From sequence record PZ357121.2: 64,000 nucleotides of DNA. One strand, given 5' to 3'. The stretch is from a phage. The translations under genes were made by a program, and so were the position numbers. The notes beneath the pieces were generated by a model. The model was not told where the DNA came from. It searched no databases and worked only from the letters and a program-made list of their open reading frames with translations. Below are positions 3,229 through 63,080 of the stretch, in pieces. The number at the start of each line of letters is the position of its first letter. Within the stretch, counting starts at the first letter, position 1.

Positions 3229-4554
3229 TCAAAGTGCCTCCAAGTCTTTAGTGTACTCTGTCACAACATCAGTAGACTTCCAATACTCATTTTCTTCTTT
3301 CTTAGCTTTAGCTTCTTCCGCTAGTTTACGTGCTTCGTCAGAAGTGATATGGAAGATGTTAAGGCCTACCAGTTTATCGACATGTTCTTTATACATTTCG
3401 ATTTGTGCTAGCTCTTCAGTCAAAGCTTTACGAGTCTTGCCCTGAATCACAATTTCGCCACTGATAACTTTTTTGATGAAGTGTGCCTTAGCAAAAGCCA
3501 GTTTAAATGCTTTTTCAGATTCAAGGATTTTGTTGTCAATACGTTTCTGAACGTAAGTCTTACGGACTTCAACAAAATCTTTGATTAAGTCCACTACATT
3601 ATCATAGACTGCTAATTTACCCTTTTCATTAATCACTGTGATGTTTTGTGAACGACGTTCGATGAGACTAAAATCTTTCATGATTTTTTCATGACGTAGC
3701 TCTTCATCATCAGGAAGCGAGTACTCTTTACGGAACTTCACCTTAAACCCAAAGCCGTGTTCACCGCAATCATCTTCCCATGAGATTAGACCTTTGTCTT
3801 CCAACGGGTCAAGAACCTTACTCACATACGTTTCACGGTCAAATTTATATGGGATTTCAGTTATCTGCATTTGAGTGCGAGATGTGAACTTATATGTTCC
3901 GTGAATCTCATAACGCCCATCAACTTCATGTACTTCACCACGGAATTCTGGGAATTCAACTTTTGGCTTAGTAACATTTTTACCTTGAAGAGCTTGTAAT
4001 ACAGCCTTTTTGACTGATTTAAAACTATGAGGCAGAATATTTGTTGCGTAACCGGTTGCAATACCAGAGACACCATTCAAAAGAACTGTCGGAATAATAG
4101 GAAGATAGAATTTTGGTGGAATGTGTTCTTTATCTTCATGAGCTGGAGCATATTCAGTATCTTTATATACGTTATAGAAATTTTTACTTACACGAGCAAA
4201 AATATAACGAGATGCTGCAGCTTTTTGGACTGTTCTAGAACCAAAGTTGCCTTGGCCATCTAACAGTGGATAGTTGTTGTTCCATGTGTTAGCCATCAAT
4301 GCACCTGCATCTTGTGCAGAGATTTCACCATGGTGATAACCTAAATCTGCAACACCGCCTGCAATTGACGCAAGTTTATGAAATTTTTCTTTATTACCAC
4401 GAGCCAAATCTAACGCACGATGAACCACAAAACGTTGAACCGGCTTAAATCCATCAATCATGTTTGGGATTGCACGGTTTTCAACGGTGTACATCGCATA
4501 TGCTAAGGCTTCGTTATCAATAATACTTTTTAGATTACGAGAATTCAATTGCAT
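3229..4554 (-). CDS. 52: DNA topoisomerase II medium subunit gp52 (441 aa)
   Basis: ATG ORF; GyrA-like N-terminal region; length and sequence match recalled T4 gp52. Confidence 0.9.
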   Translation of the reverse strand: MQLNSRNLKSIIDNEALAYAMYTVENRAIPNMIDGFKPVQRFVVHRALDLARGNKEKFHKLASIAGGVADLGYHHGEISAQDAGALMANTWNNNYPLLDGQGNFGSRTVQKAAASRYIFARVSKNFYNVYKDTEYAPAHEDKEHIPPKFYLPIIPTVLLNGVSGIATGYATNILPHSFKSVKKAVLQALQGKNVTKPKVEFPEFRGEVHEVDGRYEIHGTYKFTSRTQMQITEIPYKFDRETYVSKVLDPLEDKGLISWEDDCGEHGFGFKVKFRKEYSLPDDEELRHEKIMKDFSLIERRSQNITVINEKGKLAVYDNVVDLIKDFVEVRKTYVQKRIDNKILESEKAFKLAFAKAHFIKKVISGEIVIQGKTRKALTEELAQIEMYKEHVDKLVGLNIFHITSDEARKLAEEAKAKKEENEYWKSTDVVTEYTKDLEAL

Positions 4555-15411: not shown

Positions 15412-15831
15412 TTATGCGAAAGCAGCTGGGGTATATTTTTTAATTTGGAATTCAGGAACTACCATGAACTGACCAGCGAAAACGATGTTATAAAGCTTAA
15501 CACCATCTTCTACCCAACGGTCGCTGATAAATCCGGCGATTTGCTTAGTTTTCCACGGTGTTCCATCAGTTGCCGCAGCAATAGTGAATTCATGGTCTTT
15601 TTCAACAGAAACTGATCTGCATAGTCCCCATTTGAACGCTTTTTCTTCTGGTTCAATGAACTGGCTTGAGACGTAGCCAATATTACCATTAGCATCACGA
15701 ACTTTAACTTGGTTACGACCAAAAACCGGATCACTCACAGAAATAACTTCAACCAACTTCCCGGCAACTTTAGAGCGAGAAGCAACAGATACATATACGT
15801 AATCACCTGTAGAGAGATTTACAATATTCAT
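15412..15831 (-). CDS. hypothetical protein (139 aa), paralog of adjacent gene
   Basis: ATG ORF; shares SxASRSK.AGxLVEV, FKWxLC and GFISDxWVEDGxKLYNIVF motifs with 15841-16338. Confidence 0.65.
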   Translation of the reverse strand: MNIVNLSTGDYVYVSVASRSKVAGKLVEVISVSDPVFGRNQVKVRDANGNIGYVSSQFIEPEEKAFKWGLCRSVSVEKDHEFTIAAATDGTPWKTKQIAGFISDRWVEDGVKLYNIVFAGQFMVVPEFQIKKYTPAAFA

Positions 15832-15840
15832 AATAATTCC

Positions 15841-16338
15841 TTAAGCTTTATGAGGAGACACATAGCGAGTGATTTCAGATTCTTTAACAACTCGGAAGTC
15901 ACCTAAGAATACGATATTGTATAACTTTTCACCATCTTCAACCCATTGGTCACTAATGAAGCCACACATAGTATCAGTTTTGCTTGGATAACCGTATTCG
16001 TCGATGTAATCAAATTCTTTATCGGTTATAAATTCAACGCCTTTGCAAAGAGCCCATTTGAACTGTGTAGTAGGCTCAACGATATCGCTTGAAGCAAAGT
16101 GTGCAGGTGCAACTTCTTCGCTTGAAGCAAATTGGACTCGTATATGTTTTTCCAGGAATTTAGGACTTACGTAAGCATACTGGGCATCTTGTCCGCCAAA
16201 ACTGGGCATGATTCGAACTTTAACTTCTTTAATACGTCCCATGCCATTTGTGCGAAGTCCGACAACTTCAACCAGACGACCTGCGGCTTTAGACCGGGAT
16301 GCAGTTGATACACGCTTAATTTCACCAATAGTAATCAT
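15841..16338 (-). CDS. hypothetical protein (165 aa), paralog of adjacent gene
   Basis: ATG ORF; tandem paralog of 15412-15831. Confidence 0.65.
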   Translation of the reverse strand: MITIGEIKRVSTASRSKAAGRLVEVVGLRTNGMGRIKEVKVRIMPSFGGQDAQYAYVSPKFLEKHIRVQFASSEEVAPAHFASSDIVEPTTQFKWALCKGVEFITDKEFDYIDEYGYPSKTDTMCGFISDQWVEDGEKLYNIVFLGDFRVVKESEITRYVSPHKA

Positions 16339-16369
16339 AATTTTTTCTCTCTTTGTTTAAGTTGAATTC

Positions 16370-24775: not shown

Positions 24776-25426
24776 TTAACCTCGATTCATAAATGCATTA
24801 AATATTTGGTCATCAACAGAAATTTCTAATTCGACTTCAATTGCTTCAGCCTTTTCTTCAGGTGGTAATTCGTATCCACACACTACAATTTTTTCATCGA
24901 TATCAAAATATACAGAAGCAATATGATTAATGTTATTTTCGGTTAAGTCTAAATCAACATCAACATCTTTTTGACCTACACTTAAAGGATAACTAATACG
25001 GGTTATTTTATTATCTTTAACAAAGAGTCCGCCAACATACTCTGTACTACGTTTGAAGTTTACACGTTTCCGAAATGAAAGATATGATGCATCTTTACCG
25101 TGAGCTCGGCTCATAGGACATAATGAATAGCTAGAATAAGAGATGTCAAATCCTACGCCTTCAATATGAGCCAACGTGTCATGAGTAAACCAATTATAAT
25201 CATATGCCAAATCCATTATATTGTAATATGTGAAAGGCACAGGATTAACATCATATGTTGTACCTTTAAAATCTGCCCAGGCAACGATTTCATTATCTTT
25301 AACAATTACAAAAATTACACCAATATGGTATCCGTTATTATTTTCATTCGGCGTTATATTATAACATTGTGCATTAGGAAATTTACCATATTTAAATGGT
25401 GCGTTTTTGTGCATGTAATAAATCAT
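24776..25426 (-). CDS. hypothetical protein (216 aa)
   Basis: ATG at 25426 just after sp stop; track start is GTG. Confidence 0.55.
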   Translation of the reverse strand: MIYYMHKNAPFKYGKFPNAQCYNITPNENNNGYHIGVIFVIVKDNEIVAWADFKGTTYDVNPVPFTYYNIMDLAYDYNWFTHDTLAHIEGVGFDISYSSYSLCPMSRAHGKDASYLSFRKRVNFKRSTEYVGGLFVKDNKITRISYPLSVGQKDVDVDLDLTENNINHIASVYFDIDEKIVVCGYELPPEEKAEAIEVELEISVDDQIFNAFMNRG

Positions 25427-25427
25427 A

Positions 25428-25721
25428 TTATTCACCTGTGATTTCGGTTACGATATCTTTGTTATCGAAATTAGGGTCACAATACAAAACATAGTTGTAC
25501 TGCATGATACCGCCAGACTTAAGTTGTTCAACAACTTTATTAACCATATTAGGACGGTCTCGTTTAGTGATGTTCATGATATCAGAGAAGATTTGTTGTT
25601 CAACATCTTCTTGATTTGCAGTCATTGACCACTCACAGAGGTCTTTATCATAACCTGCTGTAACTGGAGCCGGTGCACATGATACTGCAAGTAAGATTGC
25701 TGCCAATGATAACTTTTTCAT
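25428..25721 (-). CDS. sp: spackle periplasmic protein Sp (97 aa, signal peptide)
   Basis: ATG ORF with AAGGAG SD; MKKLSLAAILLAVSCA...GYDKDLCEWSMTA...KSGGIMQYNYVLYCD... matches recalled T4 Sp (61.3). Confidence 0.85.
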   Translation of the reverse strand: MKKLSLAAILLAVSCAPAPVTAGYDKDLCEWSMTANQEDVEQQIFSDIMNITKRDRPNMVNKVVEQLKSGGIMQYNYVLYCDPNFDNKDIVTEITGE

Positions 25722-26094: not shown

Positions 26095-26463
26095 TTAATT
26101 AAATTTGTTTAAACGTTCAATACACTGGACGTAGTTATTTGCGATTTGTTTCTGGGTAGGCTCTTTACCAGTTGTTTCAACATAGCGAATGAATGCGATT
26201 TCAGTAGCCTGTAAGCAATGTTCTTTAACGCGCTGTTCTTTTGACATAGCTACAGTATCGGAATCACGATAACGTTGAGCATGAGCATCAGCTTGAATCA
26301 TTCGATTACCTACAGTAACCGGGTCTTCCACTTCAACTTTAGGTTGTTCATACTGTTTAACATTCGGATTGTAAATCAGTTGGCCGACGTTATTAGGAAT
26401 AAAGCCATGGGCACCACATCCGGTTAATCCAAATACCATTGCTAAAGCGATTAATTTTTTCAT
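26095..26463 (-). CDS. putative lipoprotein (122 aa)
   Basis: ATG ORF; signal peptide with lipobox-like LTGC. Confidence 0.6.
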   Translation of the reverse strand: MKKLIALAMVFGLTGCGAHGFIPNNVGQLIYNPNVKQYEQPKVEVEDPVTVGNRMIQADAHAQRYRDSDTVAMSKEQRVKEHCLQATEIAFIRYVETTGKEPTQKQIANNYVQCIERLNKFN

Positions 26464-26523: not shown

Positions 26524-26736
26524 TTATTTTAAACTTTTGCGAAATTTGCGTTTTTCTTGACGAATCTGTCGTTTAGTCGGACGTACAGCAAATTTAACGA
26601 AGTCCACTTTGCCGTGTGGAAACTTTTCAGATGCTTCACAGTCCATCATTAGTTCCCATCCTTCCAGAATAAGAGCTTTCCATTGTGTAGTTGATGCAAA
26701 TTCGTATGTTGATGGTTTAAACACAGTTGAATACAT
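26524..26736 (-). CDS. hypothetical protein with basic VRPTKRQIR tail (70 aa)
   Basis: ATG at 26736 (track start is TTG); C-terminal motif shared with 57553-57723. Confidence 0.5.
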   Translation of the reverse strand: MYSTVFKPSTYEFASTTQWKALILEGWELMMDCEASEKFPHGKVDFVKFAVRPTKRQIRQEKRKFRKSLK

Positions 26737-26737
26737 A

Positions 26738-26929
26738 TTATCCTCTGAAATCAGCTTCGAAAACTTTCTCGTCATTAACAAATGCTTTAACTAATGCGTT
26801 GTTCACTTCAGCAAGTTGTACCGCAACCCACTCGATTTCTTCACGGTCGCCTGATAACATGATATCTTTAGTGAACGTATTATCATTTTTAAACCAGCCA
26901 ATAAAAGTAACTTTAGTTAATTTGCTCAT
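26738..26929 (-). CDS. hypothetical protein (63 aa)
   Basis: ATG overlapping upstream stop (ATGA); track ORF extends to 26950. Confidence 0.45.
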   Translation of the reverse strand: MSKLTKVTFIGWFKNDNTFTKDIMLSGDREEIEWVAVQLAEVNNALVKAFVNDEKVFEADFRG

Positions 26930-27243
26930 ATTTCCTCGCAAAATGCCCATTCAGCGTGATAAACTGTAGCACCTTTAGTATTATTCATTTGAACTACATC
27001 TACCGGAGAAATTACTCGATAGAGACGTGGTTCACCTCCATAAGAGCGTGCTGCTCGTCCTGCATAAATCTTTGCTAAACCGATATCTTCGGTAAAGAAT
27101 ACACGATCCAAGTTTTTCTTACGTCCTGTTTCAGACAGAACTCCTGTTTCTTCAGGAGGACAAAGCATGTTTTCGATGTTAGCTGAACTACTTGAACCGT
27201 GATAAAAAATCTTAAATTCTGCTTTACAATCGATGGTTTTCAT
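26926..27243 (-). CDS. hypothetical protein (105 aa)
   Basis: ATG ORF with GGAG SD. Confidence 0.55.
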   Translation of the reverse strand: MKTIDCKAEFKIFYHGSSSSANIENMLCPPEETGVLSETGRKKNLDRVFFTEDIGLAKIYAGRAARSYGGEPRLYRVISPVDVVQMNNTKGATVYHAEWAFCEEI

Positions 27244-27298: not shown

Positions 27299-27673
27299 TT
27301 AAAAACGTAATTTAGATATATCTGCGTTGATTTCGTTTTGGTTTGCGTCGTATGCAATTAAACGAACCGCTTTAGATGGGTCATTCAATGCATAGAAATG
27401 ATGGAACATTGCTCGAACGATATCACCATTTACGAGTTCTACCTGGACAGGAGAACCTTTTTCGAGTTGGAAATGTTCATAAGCTTTGATGGTTCGCAGA
27501 TAATCAAGTTTTTGATTTCCGGCTCCAACAATTTGTACGATACGTTTGCCCATGTTTTCCATACGAGATACAATAGTTTTAGGAGCAAGAATAACGTAGG
27601 TTGCCAGCGGAGAAACTACTTCAACAGTTGTGTTTTCGGTGATTGCAGTAAAAATTGCTTGAGACATATTCAT
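27299..27673 (-). CDS. hypothetical protein (124 aa)
   Basis: ATG ORF. Confidence 0.6.
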   Translation of the reverse strand: MNMSQAIFTAITENTTVEVVSPLATYVILAPKTIVSRMENMGKRIVQIVGAGNQKLDYLRTIKAYEHFQLEKGSPVQVELVNGDIVRAMFHHFYALNDPSKAVRLIAYDANQNEINADISKLRF

Positions 27674-55270: not shown

Positions 55271-55808
55271 ACTCATACGCCTGGAATGCATCGTATACGT
55301 CTTTTTCTGTTTTAGATTGGGCATAATTCAACGCATCAGCGATTTGCCATTTTTCTGCATCCTCAATATGTTTTGCATAGGTGCGTTTAACATAAGGAGA
55401 AAGAACTTTATCGACATTCGCAAATGTAGTTCCACCATACTGATGCGAAGCAACTTGTGCAGTAATTTGTGCCATAATTGCAGTAGCAACACCAATAGAT
55501 TTAGGCGTTTCAATTTGAGCATTGCCGAGCTTAAATCCGTTTTCAAGCATTCCTTTTAAATCTACTAAACAGCAATTAGTAAAAGGCAATGATATACTGT
55601 AATCTAAATCATGAAAATGAATTAATCCAACATTATGGGCATTTACAATATGACTTGGAAGAATACGACAAGCGATATGTTTAGAAACAATACCGGCCAT
55701 TAAATCTCTTTTTGTTGGAAAGACGCGAGAATCTTTGTTGGCGTTTTCTGTATTTAATTCTTTATCTTTATTTGAAATAAAATTTAAAACATCTTTTTCT
55801 AAAGACAT
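55271..55808 (-). CDS. nrdD: anaerobic ribonucleotide reductase NrdD, exon 1
   Basis: ATG ORF; MSLEKDVLNF...NENANKDSRVFPTKRDLMAGIVSKHIA...CCLVDLKGMLENGFKLGNAQIETPKSIGVATAIMAQI... matches recalled T4 NrdD N-terminus; frame ends in intron stop. Confidence 0.85.
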
Positions 55809-56620
55809 AATTCTAATTTATCCTTTTGAAATTCTTCGTCTAAATATGGGTTCCAACCCATTTTAAACCTTTTGATGAAATTATCAATTCTAAATTTCGG
55901 TAAGTTTAAATCCGCAAAAATAGATGATTTACTTTTAAAATCTGGACTTAAATAATCATATAAAATTTCTGCGTATTTTAACCATAATATACAAGTACCA
56001 GATTTAATTGCTCTCGGAGTTTTCCAAGGTTTTACACCATACATCGGATTTCCACTTCCTTTATGCCTGATAGAAGATGAAATTCCAATTTTAATTTTAG
56101 CTTCCTTTGTATGCGAAAATCCACGATGTGGATTTTCTTTCCAGTATTTTTTAGAAGCTTCTGATATTTTCTTTCTGGCTAAATTAGTATGATGCTTTCC
56201 ATAAAATCCATGATTTTTGCCTTTATTACGATTTCTTTTAATCATGGTTATTGATTGCTTTTCTCTAGTTTCTTTAGAAGGAGAAATACCATATGTCGTA
56301 AATTGGCCATCAGCATATGCTAAATTAAAATACTCTTTATTCCATACATCTTTTTCTATATTCTTTTGAAATTCAGCTTCAATGCTAGTTATTTGTTCAT
56401 CTCCGACTAATTGAAAATATAATATCTCAACTTTCGGCGTTTCTTTCAATAAGGCTTTTTGAAATTCGGAAGATGACGAAGACGAATAATAAAATTTACC
56501 ATTTTTATCAATAATATTCGTTCCGTCAAAAGTGCAATTGGTTTTACTTCCAATGTAATAATATGGCGGGGTTTTAGCATTAATTCTACTAATAAACGAT
56601 AGTTTATATACTACATTCAT
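55799..56620 (-). CDS. free-standing GIY-YIG homing endonuclease, Seg-like (273 aa)
   Basis: ATG ORF; N-terminal YYYIGSKT...(GIY-YIG-type) and repeated basic helix (NUMOD-like) segments; inserted between 49 and nrdD. Confidence 0.7.
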   Translation of the reverse strand: MNVVYKLSFISRINAKTPPYYYIGSKTNCTFDGTNIIDKNGKFYYSSSSSSEFQKALLKETPKVEILYFQLVGDEQITSIEAEFQKNIEKDVWNKEYFNLAYADGQFTTYGISPSKETREKQSITMIKRNRNKGKNHGFYGKHHTNLARKKISEASKKYWKENPHRGFSHTKEAKIKIGISSSIRHKGSGNPMYGVKPWKTPRAIKSGTCILWLKYAEILYDYLSPDFKSKSSIFADLNLPKFRIDNFIKRFKMGWNPYLDEEFQKDKLELCL

Positions 56621-57125: not shown

Positions 57126-57551
57126 TTAACTTAAACGTCTTTCTAAATATTCAATGTATTCTGCGGCTGCTTGCATCAGGTTACCTTCATAGCCGTCGTT
57201 ATTTTCTTGTCCAGCTAATTTAGCTAATGCATAAGAAATTCGTTCACCTTCGAATTCACCAAGTTTACTACCTAGCACATCCGCAATATCAGCCGAATCA
57301 ATTTCTTCGAGTTCATCTATTGAATGTGATTCCCAGAAGCACCAAAGAGAAGTATCACGGTCATAGATGCAAAGTTTCTCACCAGTGTTCAACATCACTT
57401 CAATAATGCCATGGTCGCCATAACCATCTTCGGTCGTAGTACCAATTACCTTGATGATTGTTCCTTTCTTTAATTCAGGAAACTTGACTTGTAGTTCTTC
57501 ATCTTCTTTAACAATCTTGAACCATTTACCACGTGTGTCAGAAATATTCAT
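57126..57551 (-). CDS. hypothetical protein (141 aa)
   Basis: Internal ATG with AGAGGA SD chosen to avoid 137-nt overlap; between nrdC and 49 where T4 pin lies (not verified). Confidence 0.45.
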   Translation of the reverse strand: MNISDTRGKWFKIVKEDEELQVKFPELKKGTIIKVIGTTTEDGYGDHGIIEVMLNTGEKLCIYDRDTSLWCFWESHSIDELEEIDSADIADVLGSKLGEFEGERISYALAKLAGQENNDGYEGNLMQAAAEYIEYLERRLS

Positions 57552-57552
57552 A

Positions 57553-57723
57553 TCAATATCCTCTATAAAAGTTACGATGAGAACGTTTAGCTTTGCGAAG
57601 CTGACGTTTAGTAGGACGAACTGTAAATGGTTGTCCAGAGAAAAAATTCGGATCTGTTTTAATAAGCAAATACCAATCATGCTTGCCATTTTTTAATAAA
57701 CGGTACAATAATTTAACTTGCAT
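57553..57723 (-). CDS. hypothetical protein with basic VRPTKRQLR tail (56 aa)
   Basis: ATG at 57723 with GGAAGAGA SD (track start is TTG); C-terminal motif shared with 26524-26736. Confidence 0.45.
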   Translation of the reverse strand: MQVKLLYRLLKNGKHDWYLLIKTDPNFFSGQPFTVRPTKRQLRKAKRSHRNFYRGY

Positions 57724-57851
57724 AATAATCTCTTCCCATTTCCATATCAATCATATCGTTTACTGTAGGTTCATCATAACACGTTTCTTCGTCGTTGTAA
57801 ACTGTTTCGACGTCTGGCTCGACAGTTTCCCATCGAGCCGAATACCATGGC

Positions 57852-58208
57852 TTAACCCCGGAGTTTATTGAGCTCTTCATAATCAATCCAGGATTCTAGC
57901 CCTGACGGCAGGTCACATTCAATGTTCCACAGAAGCTCTTCAATGGCTTGCAGGCGATTATATTCTTCAACGGTAATGGTAACCATTGGTGTAACCGGTT
58001 CTGCCTTTTTAACCATCATGTCGTTCATCAGGACGTAAAGGTCATCACGAACGACAGTGTCGTTCCAACCCCATGATTTGGCTTCGTAAGCTAATGATGA
58101 AGGGAGCACATTTAAAACTTCAATAATAGTTGGAGCATCAGGACCAAGTTCATTGGCACAAACTTCGTATACATCTTGGAAATCTTTAAGATTTAATGAA
58201 TATGTCAT
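57852..58208 (-). CDS. hypothetical protein (118 aa)
   Basis: ATG ORF; shares an identical 23-nt translation-initiation region with the next gene. Confidence 0.55.
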   Translation of the reverse strand: MTYSLNLKDFQDVYEVCANELGPDAPTIIEVLNVLPSSLAYEAKSWGWNDTVVRDDLYVLMNDMMVKKAEPVTPMVTITVEEYNRLQAIEELLWNIECDLPSGLESWIDYEELNKLRG

Positions 58209-62552: not shown

Positions 62553-63080
62553 TTATGCGTGAACCGTCTTTAAACGTTCTTCAAATTTCCGAAGAGTACT
62601 AATACGTTCTGCTTTCTGTTTTGTATAGTTTGCAATACGTTCTGAAGTGAGAGCGTATCGTTCGTTTACTGTTTCTTTCATGAAGTCAGGGATTTCACGA
62701 GAAGCTTTAATTTCATCAAACTTATCGAGTACTGCCTGGTCTTCAGCGATTAAATTTTCGTACATCTCGATATCTTTCTTGATAAACTCGATATCTTCCT
62801 GGGTTACTTTGGATAAACGAGATGCTTTATCCTTTTTGTACTGCTCGTTAGTTTCACGAGACCAGAATAATGTACGTTTTTTGTTAGTGTTTTTGTAGAC
62901 TTCCACAATTCCAACTGAATCGATGATAGCAATCCAATTCCAGCGAGATTTGAAAATCTGACCTCCGTCCACGGTAATCTCGTTACCATAAGCAACGTCA
63001 TTAAAGAACTTGCTTTGTGCTTCAGATTTAAATTTACCGTCGTTATAATTTACCAGGTTGAAAATATCTTTAGCGTTCAT
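62553..63080 (-). CDS. hypothetical protein (175 aa)
   Basis: ATG ORF; leader identical to that of 26926-27243. Confidence 0.6.
   Translation of the reverse strand: MNAKDIFNLVNYNDGKFKSEAQSKFFNDVAYGNEITVDGGQIFKSRWNWIAIIDSVGIVEVYKNTNKKRTLFWSRETNEQYKKDKASRLSKVTQEDIEFIKKDIEMYENLIAEDQAVLDKFDEIKASREIPDFMKETVNERYALTSERIANYTKQKAERISTLRKFEERLKTVHA

Follow-up and report, generated by a model that had tools for sequence, protein, structure and literature searches.

Two small genes of a T-even phage, here called ORF A and ORF B, are paralogues belonging to the TifA protein family (Pfam DUF7279). Judged by its sequence, ORF A is TifA itself, the known inhibitor of the type III toxin ToxN, and is nothing new. 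ORF B is a putative RNA-binding protein which would have a different partner, and we give this combined reading a probability of about 0.6. For ORF B the best inference from sequence and predicted structure is an RNA-binding counter-defence factor of different specificity.

The stretch of DNA analysed, referred to below as the window, covers 64,000 nucleotides of sequence record PZ357121.2 and derives from an RB69/JS09-like T-even phage (Mosigvirus). Megablast searches with the regions around both genes returned hundreds of T-even phage genomes. For both regions the best matches show 96–98% identity, and JS09, TU01, AlbertHofmann, APCEc01 and other RB69 relatives head the list. ORF A (26524–26736) and ORF B (57553–57723) are both located on the minus strand amid early genes, and the coordinates given in the preliminary description proved exact.

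ORF A encodes 70 amino acids (ATG at 26736, stop codon at 26524–26526). In tblastn comparisons it is 100% identical to RB69 gp61.4, that is TifA_RB69, and 57% identical to gp61.4 of T4. The name tifA for gene 61.4 comes from Srikant, Guegler & Laub (eLife 2022; PMC9391042), in whose study T4 escaped ToxIN, a type III toxin-antitoxin system, by amplifying dmd-tifA. In their work the TifA protein inhibits ToxN and is pulled down together with it, the RB69 version has the greater potency and is sufficient on its own, and a recoded tifA still works, the inhibitor of ToxN being the protein and not the mRNA (PMC9391042). The dmd-tifA operon described there is present in the window: the first gene of the pair, dmd (26738–26929, minus strand; Pfam Dmd, E = 1.4e-20), specifies the RnlA/LsoA antitoxin and is annotated as Dmd in AlbertHofmann, and ORF A starts 1 nt past its stop codon with a GAGGA ribosome-binding site in front. 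This proximity to dmd, which marks TifA proper, is found for ORF A and not for ORF B, whose neighbours are instead a homologue of T4 gene 49.1 and pin. At least 69 records carry ORF A at ≥95% identity (tblastn), compared with at least 131 which cover the region (megablast).

A second study (Guegler et al., NAR 2023; PMC10853763) provides the biochemical background. Synthetic TifA_RB69 binds RNAs of 15–45 nt with KD values from 2.3 to 0.36 µM; binding shows no clear sequence specificity and short DNA is bound in vitro with similar affinity. TifA co-purifies with bulk cellular RNA without ToxN, and 16S rRNA is enriched in its complexes with ToxN (PMC10853763). TifA is described as a sheet of three strands packed against a basic C-terminal helix with a conserved Pro-Thr pair as its cap, and the substitutions P53A/T54A or K55A/R56A/R59A in TifA_RB69 abolish RNA co-purification, ToxN neutralization and ToxN co-precipitation alike (PMC10853763). 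Counted along ORF A, these five positions (P53, T54, K55, R56 and R59) form the P-T-K-R-x-x-R of the motif shared with ORF B and lie in the block of residues 49–67, FAVRPTKRQIRQEKRKFRK (26536–26592, minus strand). TifA also includes a loop of about 20 amino acids carrying residue 41, at which substitutions tune ToxN inhibition and which AlphaFold places at the ToxN interface; gain-of-function substitutions likewise tie the loop to ToxN recognition (PMC10853763). ORF A has this long loop, with H41 as in RB69, and its fold is assigned through its identity to TifA_RB69 as modelled in PMC10853763 (a prediction). The ToxN-trapping mechanism is published for the RB69 protein that is identical to ORF A (PMC9391042, PMC10853763). 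ORF A would accordingly bind RNA through its Pro-Thr-capped basic C-terminal helix and, in addition, the endoribonuclease toxin ToxN. The toxin would be kept inactive in a ribonucleoprotein complex, for the most part on 16S rRNA, and the ToxIN abortive-infection defence would fail.

A third gene of this kind, adfA (24776–25435, minus strand; anti-DarT factor A, homologous to T4 61.2; Pfam AdfA, E = 1.4e-120), is located about 1.1 kb beyond tifA, and the presence of dmd, tifA and adfA together in the window fits what the authors call an "anti-TA island". Between adfA and the dmd-tifA pair lie an ORF resembling DUF5481 lipoproteins (26095–26463), imm and sp. On the other side, between gene 41 and dmd, there are two ORFs of 105 and 124 amino acids (26926–27243 and 27299–27673, minus strand). 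Neither has a Pfam match or a T4 counterpart at this place, dmd of T4 following gene 41 directly. AlbertHofmann annotates the first of these as only 80 amino acids.

The preliminary description had drawn attention to a C-terminal motif, VRPTKRQ(I/L)R, common to ORF A and ORF B and had called the two genes paralogs. The motif is present in both. The block of ORF B that matches FAVRPTKRQIRQEKRKFRK is FTVRPTKRQLRKAKRSHRN (57571–57627, minus strand), and BLASTP aligns the two with 12 identities in 19 positions (E = 7e-7 as a single comparison). When all 607 stop-to-stop segments of the window were compared with each other by BLASTP, the pair reached E = 1e-3 and ranked fifth among pairs of segments at different places, a level at which about 0.6 chance pairs are expected. 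On pairwise BLAST alone the homology is only borderline. It is settled by independent profile evidence from Pfam, PHROG and hhalign. Almost the entire length of either protein is covered by a match to Pfam DUF7279 (PF23945), at 72.1 bits (E = 3.5e-20) for ORF A and 54.5 bits (E = 1.1e-14) for ORF B, far above the family cut-off of 24.5 bits. ORF B matches PHROG 3272 (E = 1.3e-26), and each protein also matches the PHROG family of the other. When eight short forms were set against fourteen long forms in hhalign, the probability was 97.3% and E = 1.9e-11 over 41 columns, which span the W-x-L strand with its conserved tryptophan, the third strand and the tail. Alignment statistics, named in the preliminary description as the test of the resemblance, are thus borderline for the pair by BLAST and decisive for the profiles. 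At the sequence level the two genes are confirmed as paralogues of the TifA family, and their likeness is one that reaches beyond the C-terminal tail, along most of their length, to judge from these alignments. Across 21 family members the conserved positions are W17, P37, T38, K39, R43 and K46 (ORF B numbering).

The similar nucleotide sequence also remarked upon earlier is real in a modest way, with 39 of 57 bases identical over the 19-codon block and 35 of 45 over the best local stretch, and the latter might be taken to mean that the two loci carry copies of one DNA or RNA element, with a role in regulation or recombination for instance. We regard this explanation as having a negligible chance of being correct. 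At all positions of VRPTKRQ.R where the residue is the same, the base differences are synonymous third-position changes (GTA/GTT, CCG/CCT, CGA/CGT and CGT/CGC); the one other difference, ATT/CTT, accounts for I/L. This pattern implies selection on the peptide and not on a nucleic-acid element. The protein likeness also persists where the DNA has diverged, and for tifA it is the protein rather than the mRNA that inhibits ToxN, a recoded gene being functional (PMC9391042). The conserved unit is the peptide and not the DNA.

A third copy of the family was found neither in the window, using a regular expression for the motif and two HMMs, nor in the remainder of the genomes of two relatives (JS09, 1–50 kb, and TH12, 45–125 kb). 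A basic segment of 28 amino acids at 62602–62685 was considered as such a copy and rejected as noise (E = 0.11–0.27). Large protein searches were sparse because the queries are so short: each single query gave 2 matches and the family alignment 20, and HMMER over 1.84 billion representatives gave 8. NCBIfam contains no match for the family and our literature search found no paper mentioning DUF7279.

ORF B (56 amino acids, 6.9 kDa; ATG at 57723, stop codon at 57553–57555) is a short member of the TifA/DUF7279 family and is tightly inserted between its neighbours. Its start is overlapped by the last 11 nt of the gene 49.1 homologue (57713–57886, minus strand), recognizable by its C-terminal end (...IDMEMGRDYYAS compared with ...IDMEMGHDYSR in T4). 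A single nucleotide separates its stop codon from the ATG of pin (57126–57551, minus strand), the gene of the host Lon protease inhibitor PinA, and the GAGGA ribosome-binding site of pin is included in the last ORF B codons. This 141-amino-acid Pin matches Pfam Inhibitor_I24 over residues 7–141 (E = 4.7e-49). Scans for promoters and terminators near ORF B gave nothing above the shuffled background. We refer to ORF B and its orthologues, located upstream of pin, as U-type short forms. In tblastn they appear at 80–100% identity in about 146 phage records, with few outside Mosigvirus, and they are annotated as a hypothetical protein gene of 171 nt in APCEc01, AV113, MM02 and SHSML-52-1. AlbertHofmann and other records list no ORF B and call pin as a gene of 184–187 amino acids across this stretch. 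The longest pin ORF in the window (57126–57689, minus strand) does encode 187 amino acids from an ATG at 57689, overlapping ORF B in another frame, and the long pin of AlbertHofmann is annotated as 555 nt; APCEc01 annotates the 141-amino-acid version, 426 nt long. The long pin was rejected as an artefact. We take the ATG at 57551 to be the true start, since the Pfam PinA domain of the 141-amino-acid protein extends from residue 7 and the start of T4 pin is at the corresponding place.

These annotations, and the state of the short genes in certain relatives (the RB69 copy of ORF B is frameshifted, and T4 and T2 have lost the related gene downstream of pin), raise the question of whether ORF B is functional at all, since it might represent a decaying tifA-like duplicate or a spurious ORF overlapping a longer pin. 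This is very improbable. Compared with AV113 and MM02, ORF B has pN/pS ratios of 0.15–0.20, and 20 of the 32 variable sites fall on the third codon position; AV113 alone differs from it by 13 synonymous and 7 non-synonymous changes (pS 0.36, pN 0.053, ratio 0.15). Such purifying selection in the ORF B frame, the full-length Pfam match, a confident structural model (below) and the artefactual nature of the long pin all stand against non-function. To judge from this substitution pattern ORF B is a genuine gene under purifying selection, and its occurrence in about 146 records and its T4-style packing between its neighbours point the same way.

Short genes of the same family are also found on the other side of pin. 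These downstream D-type forms, located between pin and gene 49, encode 58–61 amino acids, are 36–44% identical to ORF B and have in common with it a K-R-x-H-R-x-F-Y ending. They include RB69ORF087c and PP01_083 and forms from RB32, JS10, vB_EcoM_005 and DK-13, and are distributed over Tequatrovirus of the PP01 and RB32 type, Dhakavirus, Gaprivervirus and some Mosigvirus (SF, RB69). Two Mosigvirus genomes, ATK47 (KT184309 / NC_055708) and SA35RD (OL960577), carry both short forms, one on each side of pin, which indicates that the U-type and D-type are separate genes and not alleles. Counting TifA, these two genomes have three family members each. In the window, only 35 nt separate pin from gene 49, which implies that the D-type is absent here and that the upstream form is the only one.

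Presence of the short genes is irregular. In the RB69 reference (NC_004928) the ORF B orthologue (3376–3545, minus strand, of the stretch compared, near 48.5 kb of the record) is frameshifted by a homopolymer run of A7 in place of A6, which may be real or a sequencing error. RB69ORF089c is annotated in the wrong frame, and RB69ORF087c (59 amino acids) is the intact downstream form. The upstream gene is absent from Mosigvirus SF. Comparison of T4 (NC_000866, 46897–47382) with PP01 (LC348379) uncovers a deletion of 137 bp at the 3′ end of T4 pin, which takes the last three codons of pin with the stop codon and, from the downstream short gene, codons 1–42. T4 Pin (161 amino acids) is consequently an in-frame fusion to the last 16 codons of the short gene, MIQQYKRLHQMFYNT, and T2 pin, with the same length of 486 nt, carries the same fusion. 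The deletion and fusion explain the seeming lack of a T4 counterpart, and the losses in RB69, T4 and T2 show that the short genes are dispensable. T2, which is sensitive to ToxIN, was considered as a guide to the function of the short forms and was dropped, as it carries the T4-like pin fusion. No mention of short forms beside pin was found in the literature, including both TifA papers (PMC9391042, PMC10853763), and PMC10853763 makes no mention of a TifA paralogue or second copy.

Aligned with TifA, ORF B retains the same residues at M1, Y7, W17, L19, F27, G30, F33 and V35 and over the RPTKRQ.R..KR..R stretch, and is shortened by about 10 residues in its N-terminal part and by 6 between the tryptophan strand and the last strand. 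Its P37, T38, K39, R40 and R43 are the equivalents of P53, T54, K55, R56 and R59 of TifA_RB69; P37, T38, K39, R43, K46, R47 and R50 are invariant in eight aligned short forms. The protein is strongly basic (pI 11.1; 14 K+R and 2 D+E, net charge +12), with 9 K/R in its 21-residue tail. An AF2 model built from the family alignment of 21 sequences (pLDDT 84.9, pTM 0.62) has strands at residues 2–9, 15–23 and 27–33 followed by a helix at 39–55 which begins directly after P37-T38; a single-sequence model, all-helical with pLDDT 65, was discarded in its favour. The segment comprising the Pro-Thr cap and the basic C-terminal helix (residues 37–55, PTKRQLRKAKRSHRNFYRG; 57559–57615, minus strand) is the predicted RNA-binding element. 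The long TifA loop is not found in ORF B, strands 2 and 3 being joined in the model by about three residues (D24–N26). As modelled, the fold of ORF B matches the three-stranded sheet and PT-capped basic helix of TifA, minus the long loop. Structure matches in BFVD are solely small uncharacterized T-even proteins, including Merlin proteins of 54 and 75 amino acids, and the PDB yielded no sequence match for the family, nothing informative by structure and no solved structure.

The preliminary description had spoken of a short basic tail that would suit nucleic-acid or ribosome binding. The C-terminal motif is basic as stated, but it is not a free tail, being a structured helix packed on a β-sheet. 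The binding guess is essentially right. For ORF A it agrees with the published RNA binding and 16S rRNA enrichment of the identical TifA_RB69 (PMC10853763); for ORF B it would follow from P37, T38, K39, R40 and R43 together with the predicted fold.

ORF B most likely binds RNA with a TifA-type helix, as suggested by its conserved residues, its charge and its predicted fold, and its sheet surface would most likely hold a partner other than ToxN. We favour another partner because the ToxN-recognition loop has been lost and because closer homologues of TifA already fail on ToxN and TenpN. The relevant data come from PMC10853763, where ten TifA homologues were assayed, none having the 54–61 amino acids of the short forms. 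Six divergent long-form homologues (from JS98, VR7, EcS1, vB_EcoM_005, PM2 and CB4) neutralized none of the seven toxins tried, which comprised six ToxN homologues and one TenpN, and the authors' reading was that specificity is tuned to different toxins (PMC10853763). Because of this result, an anti-toxin role outside the TifA group of T2, T4, T6 and RB69 is itself no more than putative. The likeliest partner of ORF B would be a different RNA-targeting toxin or a defence nuclease, which would make ORF B, next to the Lon inhibitor Pin, a second factor directed against toxins. By analogy with TifA, the highly basic helix of ORF B could equally bind DNA instead.

That ORF B is a redundant second inhibitor of ToxN-type toxins which backs up TifA would be in keeping with its family, its RNA-binding residues and its fold class, all as in TifA, and with the requirement of RNA binding for ToxN inhibition (PMC10853763). 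The idea is nevertheless quite improbable, given that the β2-β3 loop with residue 41 is cut to about three residues in ORF B, that the JS98, VR7, EcS1 and vB_EcoM_005 proteins, much closer to TifA, neutralize no ToxN (PMC10853763) and that TifA_RB69 alone suffices (PMC9391042). Less unlikely than such redundancy, and the main alternative to a counter-defence factor, is the possibility that ORF B is an accessory protein of phage gene expression, binding RNA or ribosomes in a general way and with no dedicated defence target, concerned for example with mRNA protection or translation control; the anti-toxin role of TifA would then be a specialization of the long forms. Several observations agree with this: the RNA-binding helix is the only element conserved throughout the family, ORF B is without the loop implicated in ToxN recognition, TifA co-purifies with bulk RNA and its ToxN complexes are enriched in 16S rRNA, and the divergent homologues neutralized no toxin tried (PMC10853763). 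The patchy presence of the short genes, their frameshift and deletion and their shifting place around pin are, on the contrary, typical of accessory counter-defence genes, and the sole family member of known function is an anti-toxin. We consider a purely general role improbable, with perhaps one chance in several, and prefer a counter-defence factor with a partner other than ToxN.

The constant linkage of ORF B to pin extends this preferred reading in a more tentative direction. Lon inhibition by PinA is regarded as an anti-TA strategy in a review (PMC10286901), and the linkage is compatible with a second anti-toxin module, of which it is no proof. It is possible, though on balance doubtful, that the short genes flanking pin (ORF B and the RB69ORF087c type) together form such a module, hitherto unrecognized, in T-even phages. 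They would supply, alongside Pin, minimal scaffolds of 56–61 amino acids made up of a small sheet and a PT-capped basic helix, and each scaffold might anchor its own host target, an RNA-targeting toxin or a defence nuclease, on abundant RNA. Which of the genes a phage has would change, by gain, loss and exchange, with the defence repertoire of the host.

Compared with TifA, ORF B belongs to the same Pfam family and has in common the tryptophan strand, the P-T cap, the equivalents of K55, R56 and R59 and a predicted β-β-β-α fold. It differs in its length (56 rather than 70–85 amino acids), in the lack of about 10 residues from the N-terminal region and about 6 loop residues including the residue-41 loop, in its own C-terminal signature K-R-x-H-R-x-F-Y and in its location beside pin and not dmd. 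Since more TifA-like homologues fail to neutralize ToxN, ORF B should not be called TifA. Its closest relatives are the D-type forms, which resemble it in their short architecture, HRxFY ending and position adjoining pin, and differ in being located between pin and gene 49 whereas ORF B is located between 49.1 and pin. TifA in turn resembles Dmd (T4 61.5), encoded directly upstream, in that both are small early phage proteins which neutralize a host endoribonuclease toxin. Dmd acts by directly occluding its toxin and is not known to require RNA binding, and it belongs to an unrelated sequence family (Pfam Dmd). Arginine-rich helices such as those of lambda N and HIV Rev/Tat are short basic RNA binders too; they recognize specific hairpins and are usually unstructured alone. 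The TifA helix, unlike these, packs on a β-sheet and has no clear sequence specificity (PMC10853763).

T-even phages thus have, in addition to tifA, one or two much shorter genes of the same family at a second locus beside pin. Their annotation is inconsistent: they are often hidden under a pin gene that is called too long, the RB69 reference has a frameshifted copy, and in T4 and T2 the remnant is joined to pin. If the short genes do encode anti-toxins of other specificity, the mechanism by which a toxin is trapped on RNA would reach past ToxN, and the short forms, as very small natural scaffolds, would lend themselves to studies of the way in which specificity is encoded. Otherwise they would be small RNA-binding accessory proteins, and the annotation of the pin region is corrected either way. 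The family is an ordinary one and represents no new kind of system; the value of these observations is in flagging the short subfamily beside pin and in the corrected annotation.

Two further features of the window may be mentioned. Close to the pin region, between nrdD and gene 49, is an ORF of 273 amino acids (55799–56620, minus strand) with a NUMOD3 motif, which resembles a homing endonuclease. Most relatives match the window only from about position 56616 onward, and this ORF looks like a mobile insertion present in few genomes. The strongest protein pair within the window is formed by two tandem paralogues (15415–15840 and 15844–16356, minus strand), which are 40% identical (E = 1e-27) and both belong to the Pfam family motB (modifier of transcription).
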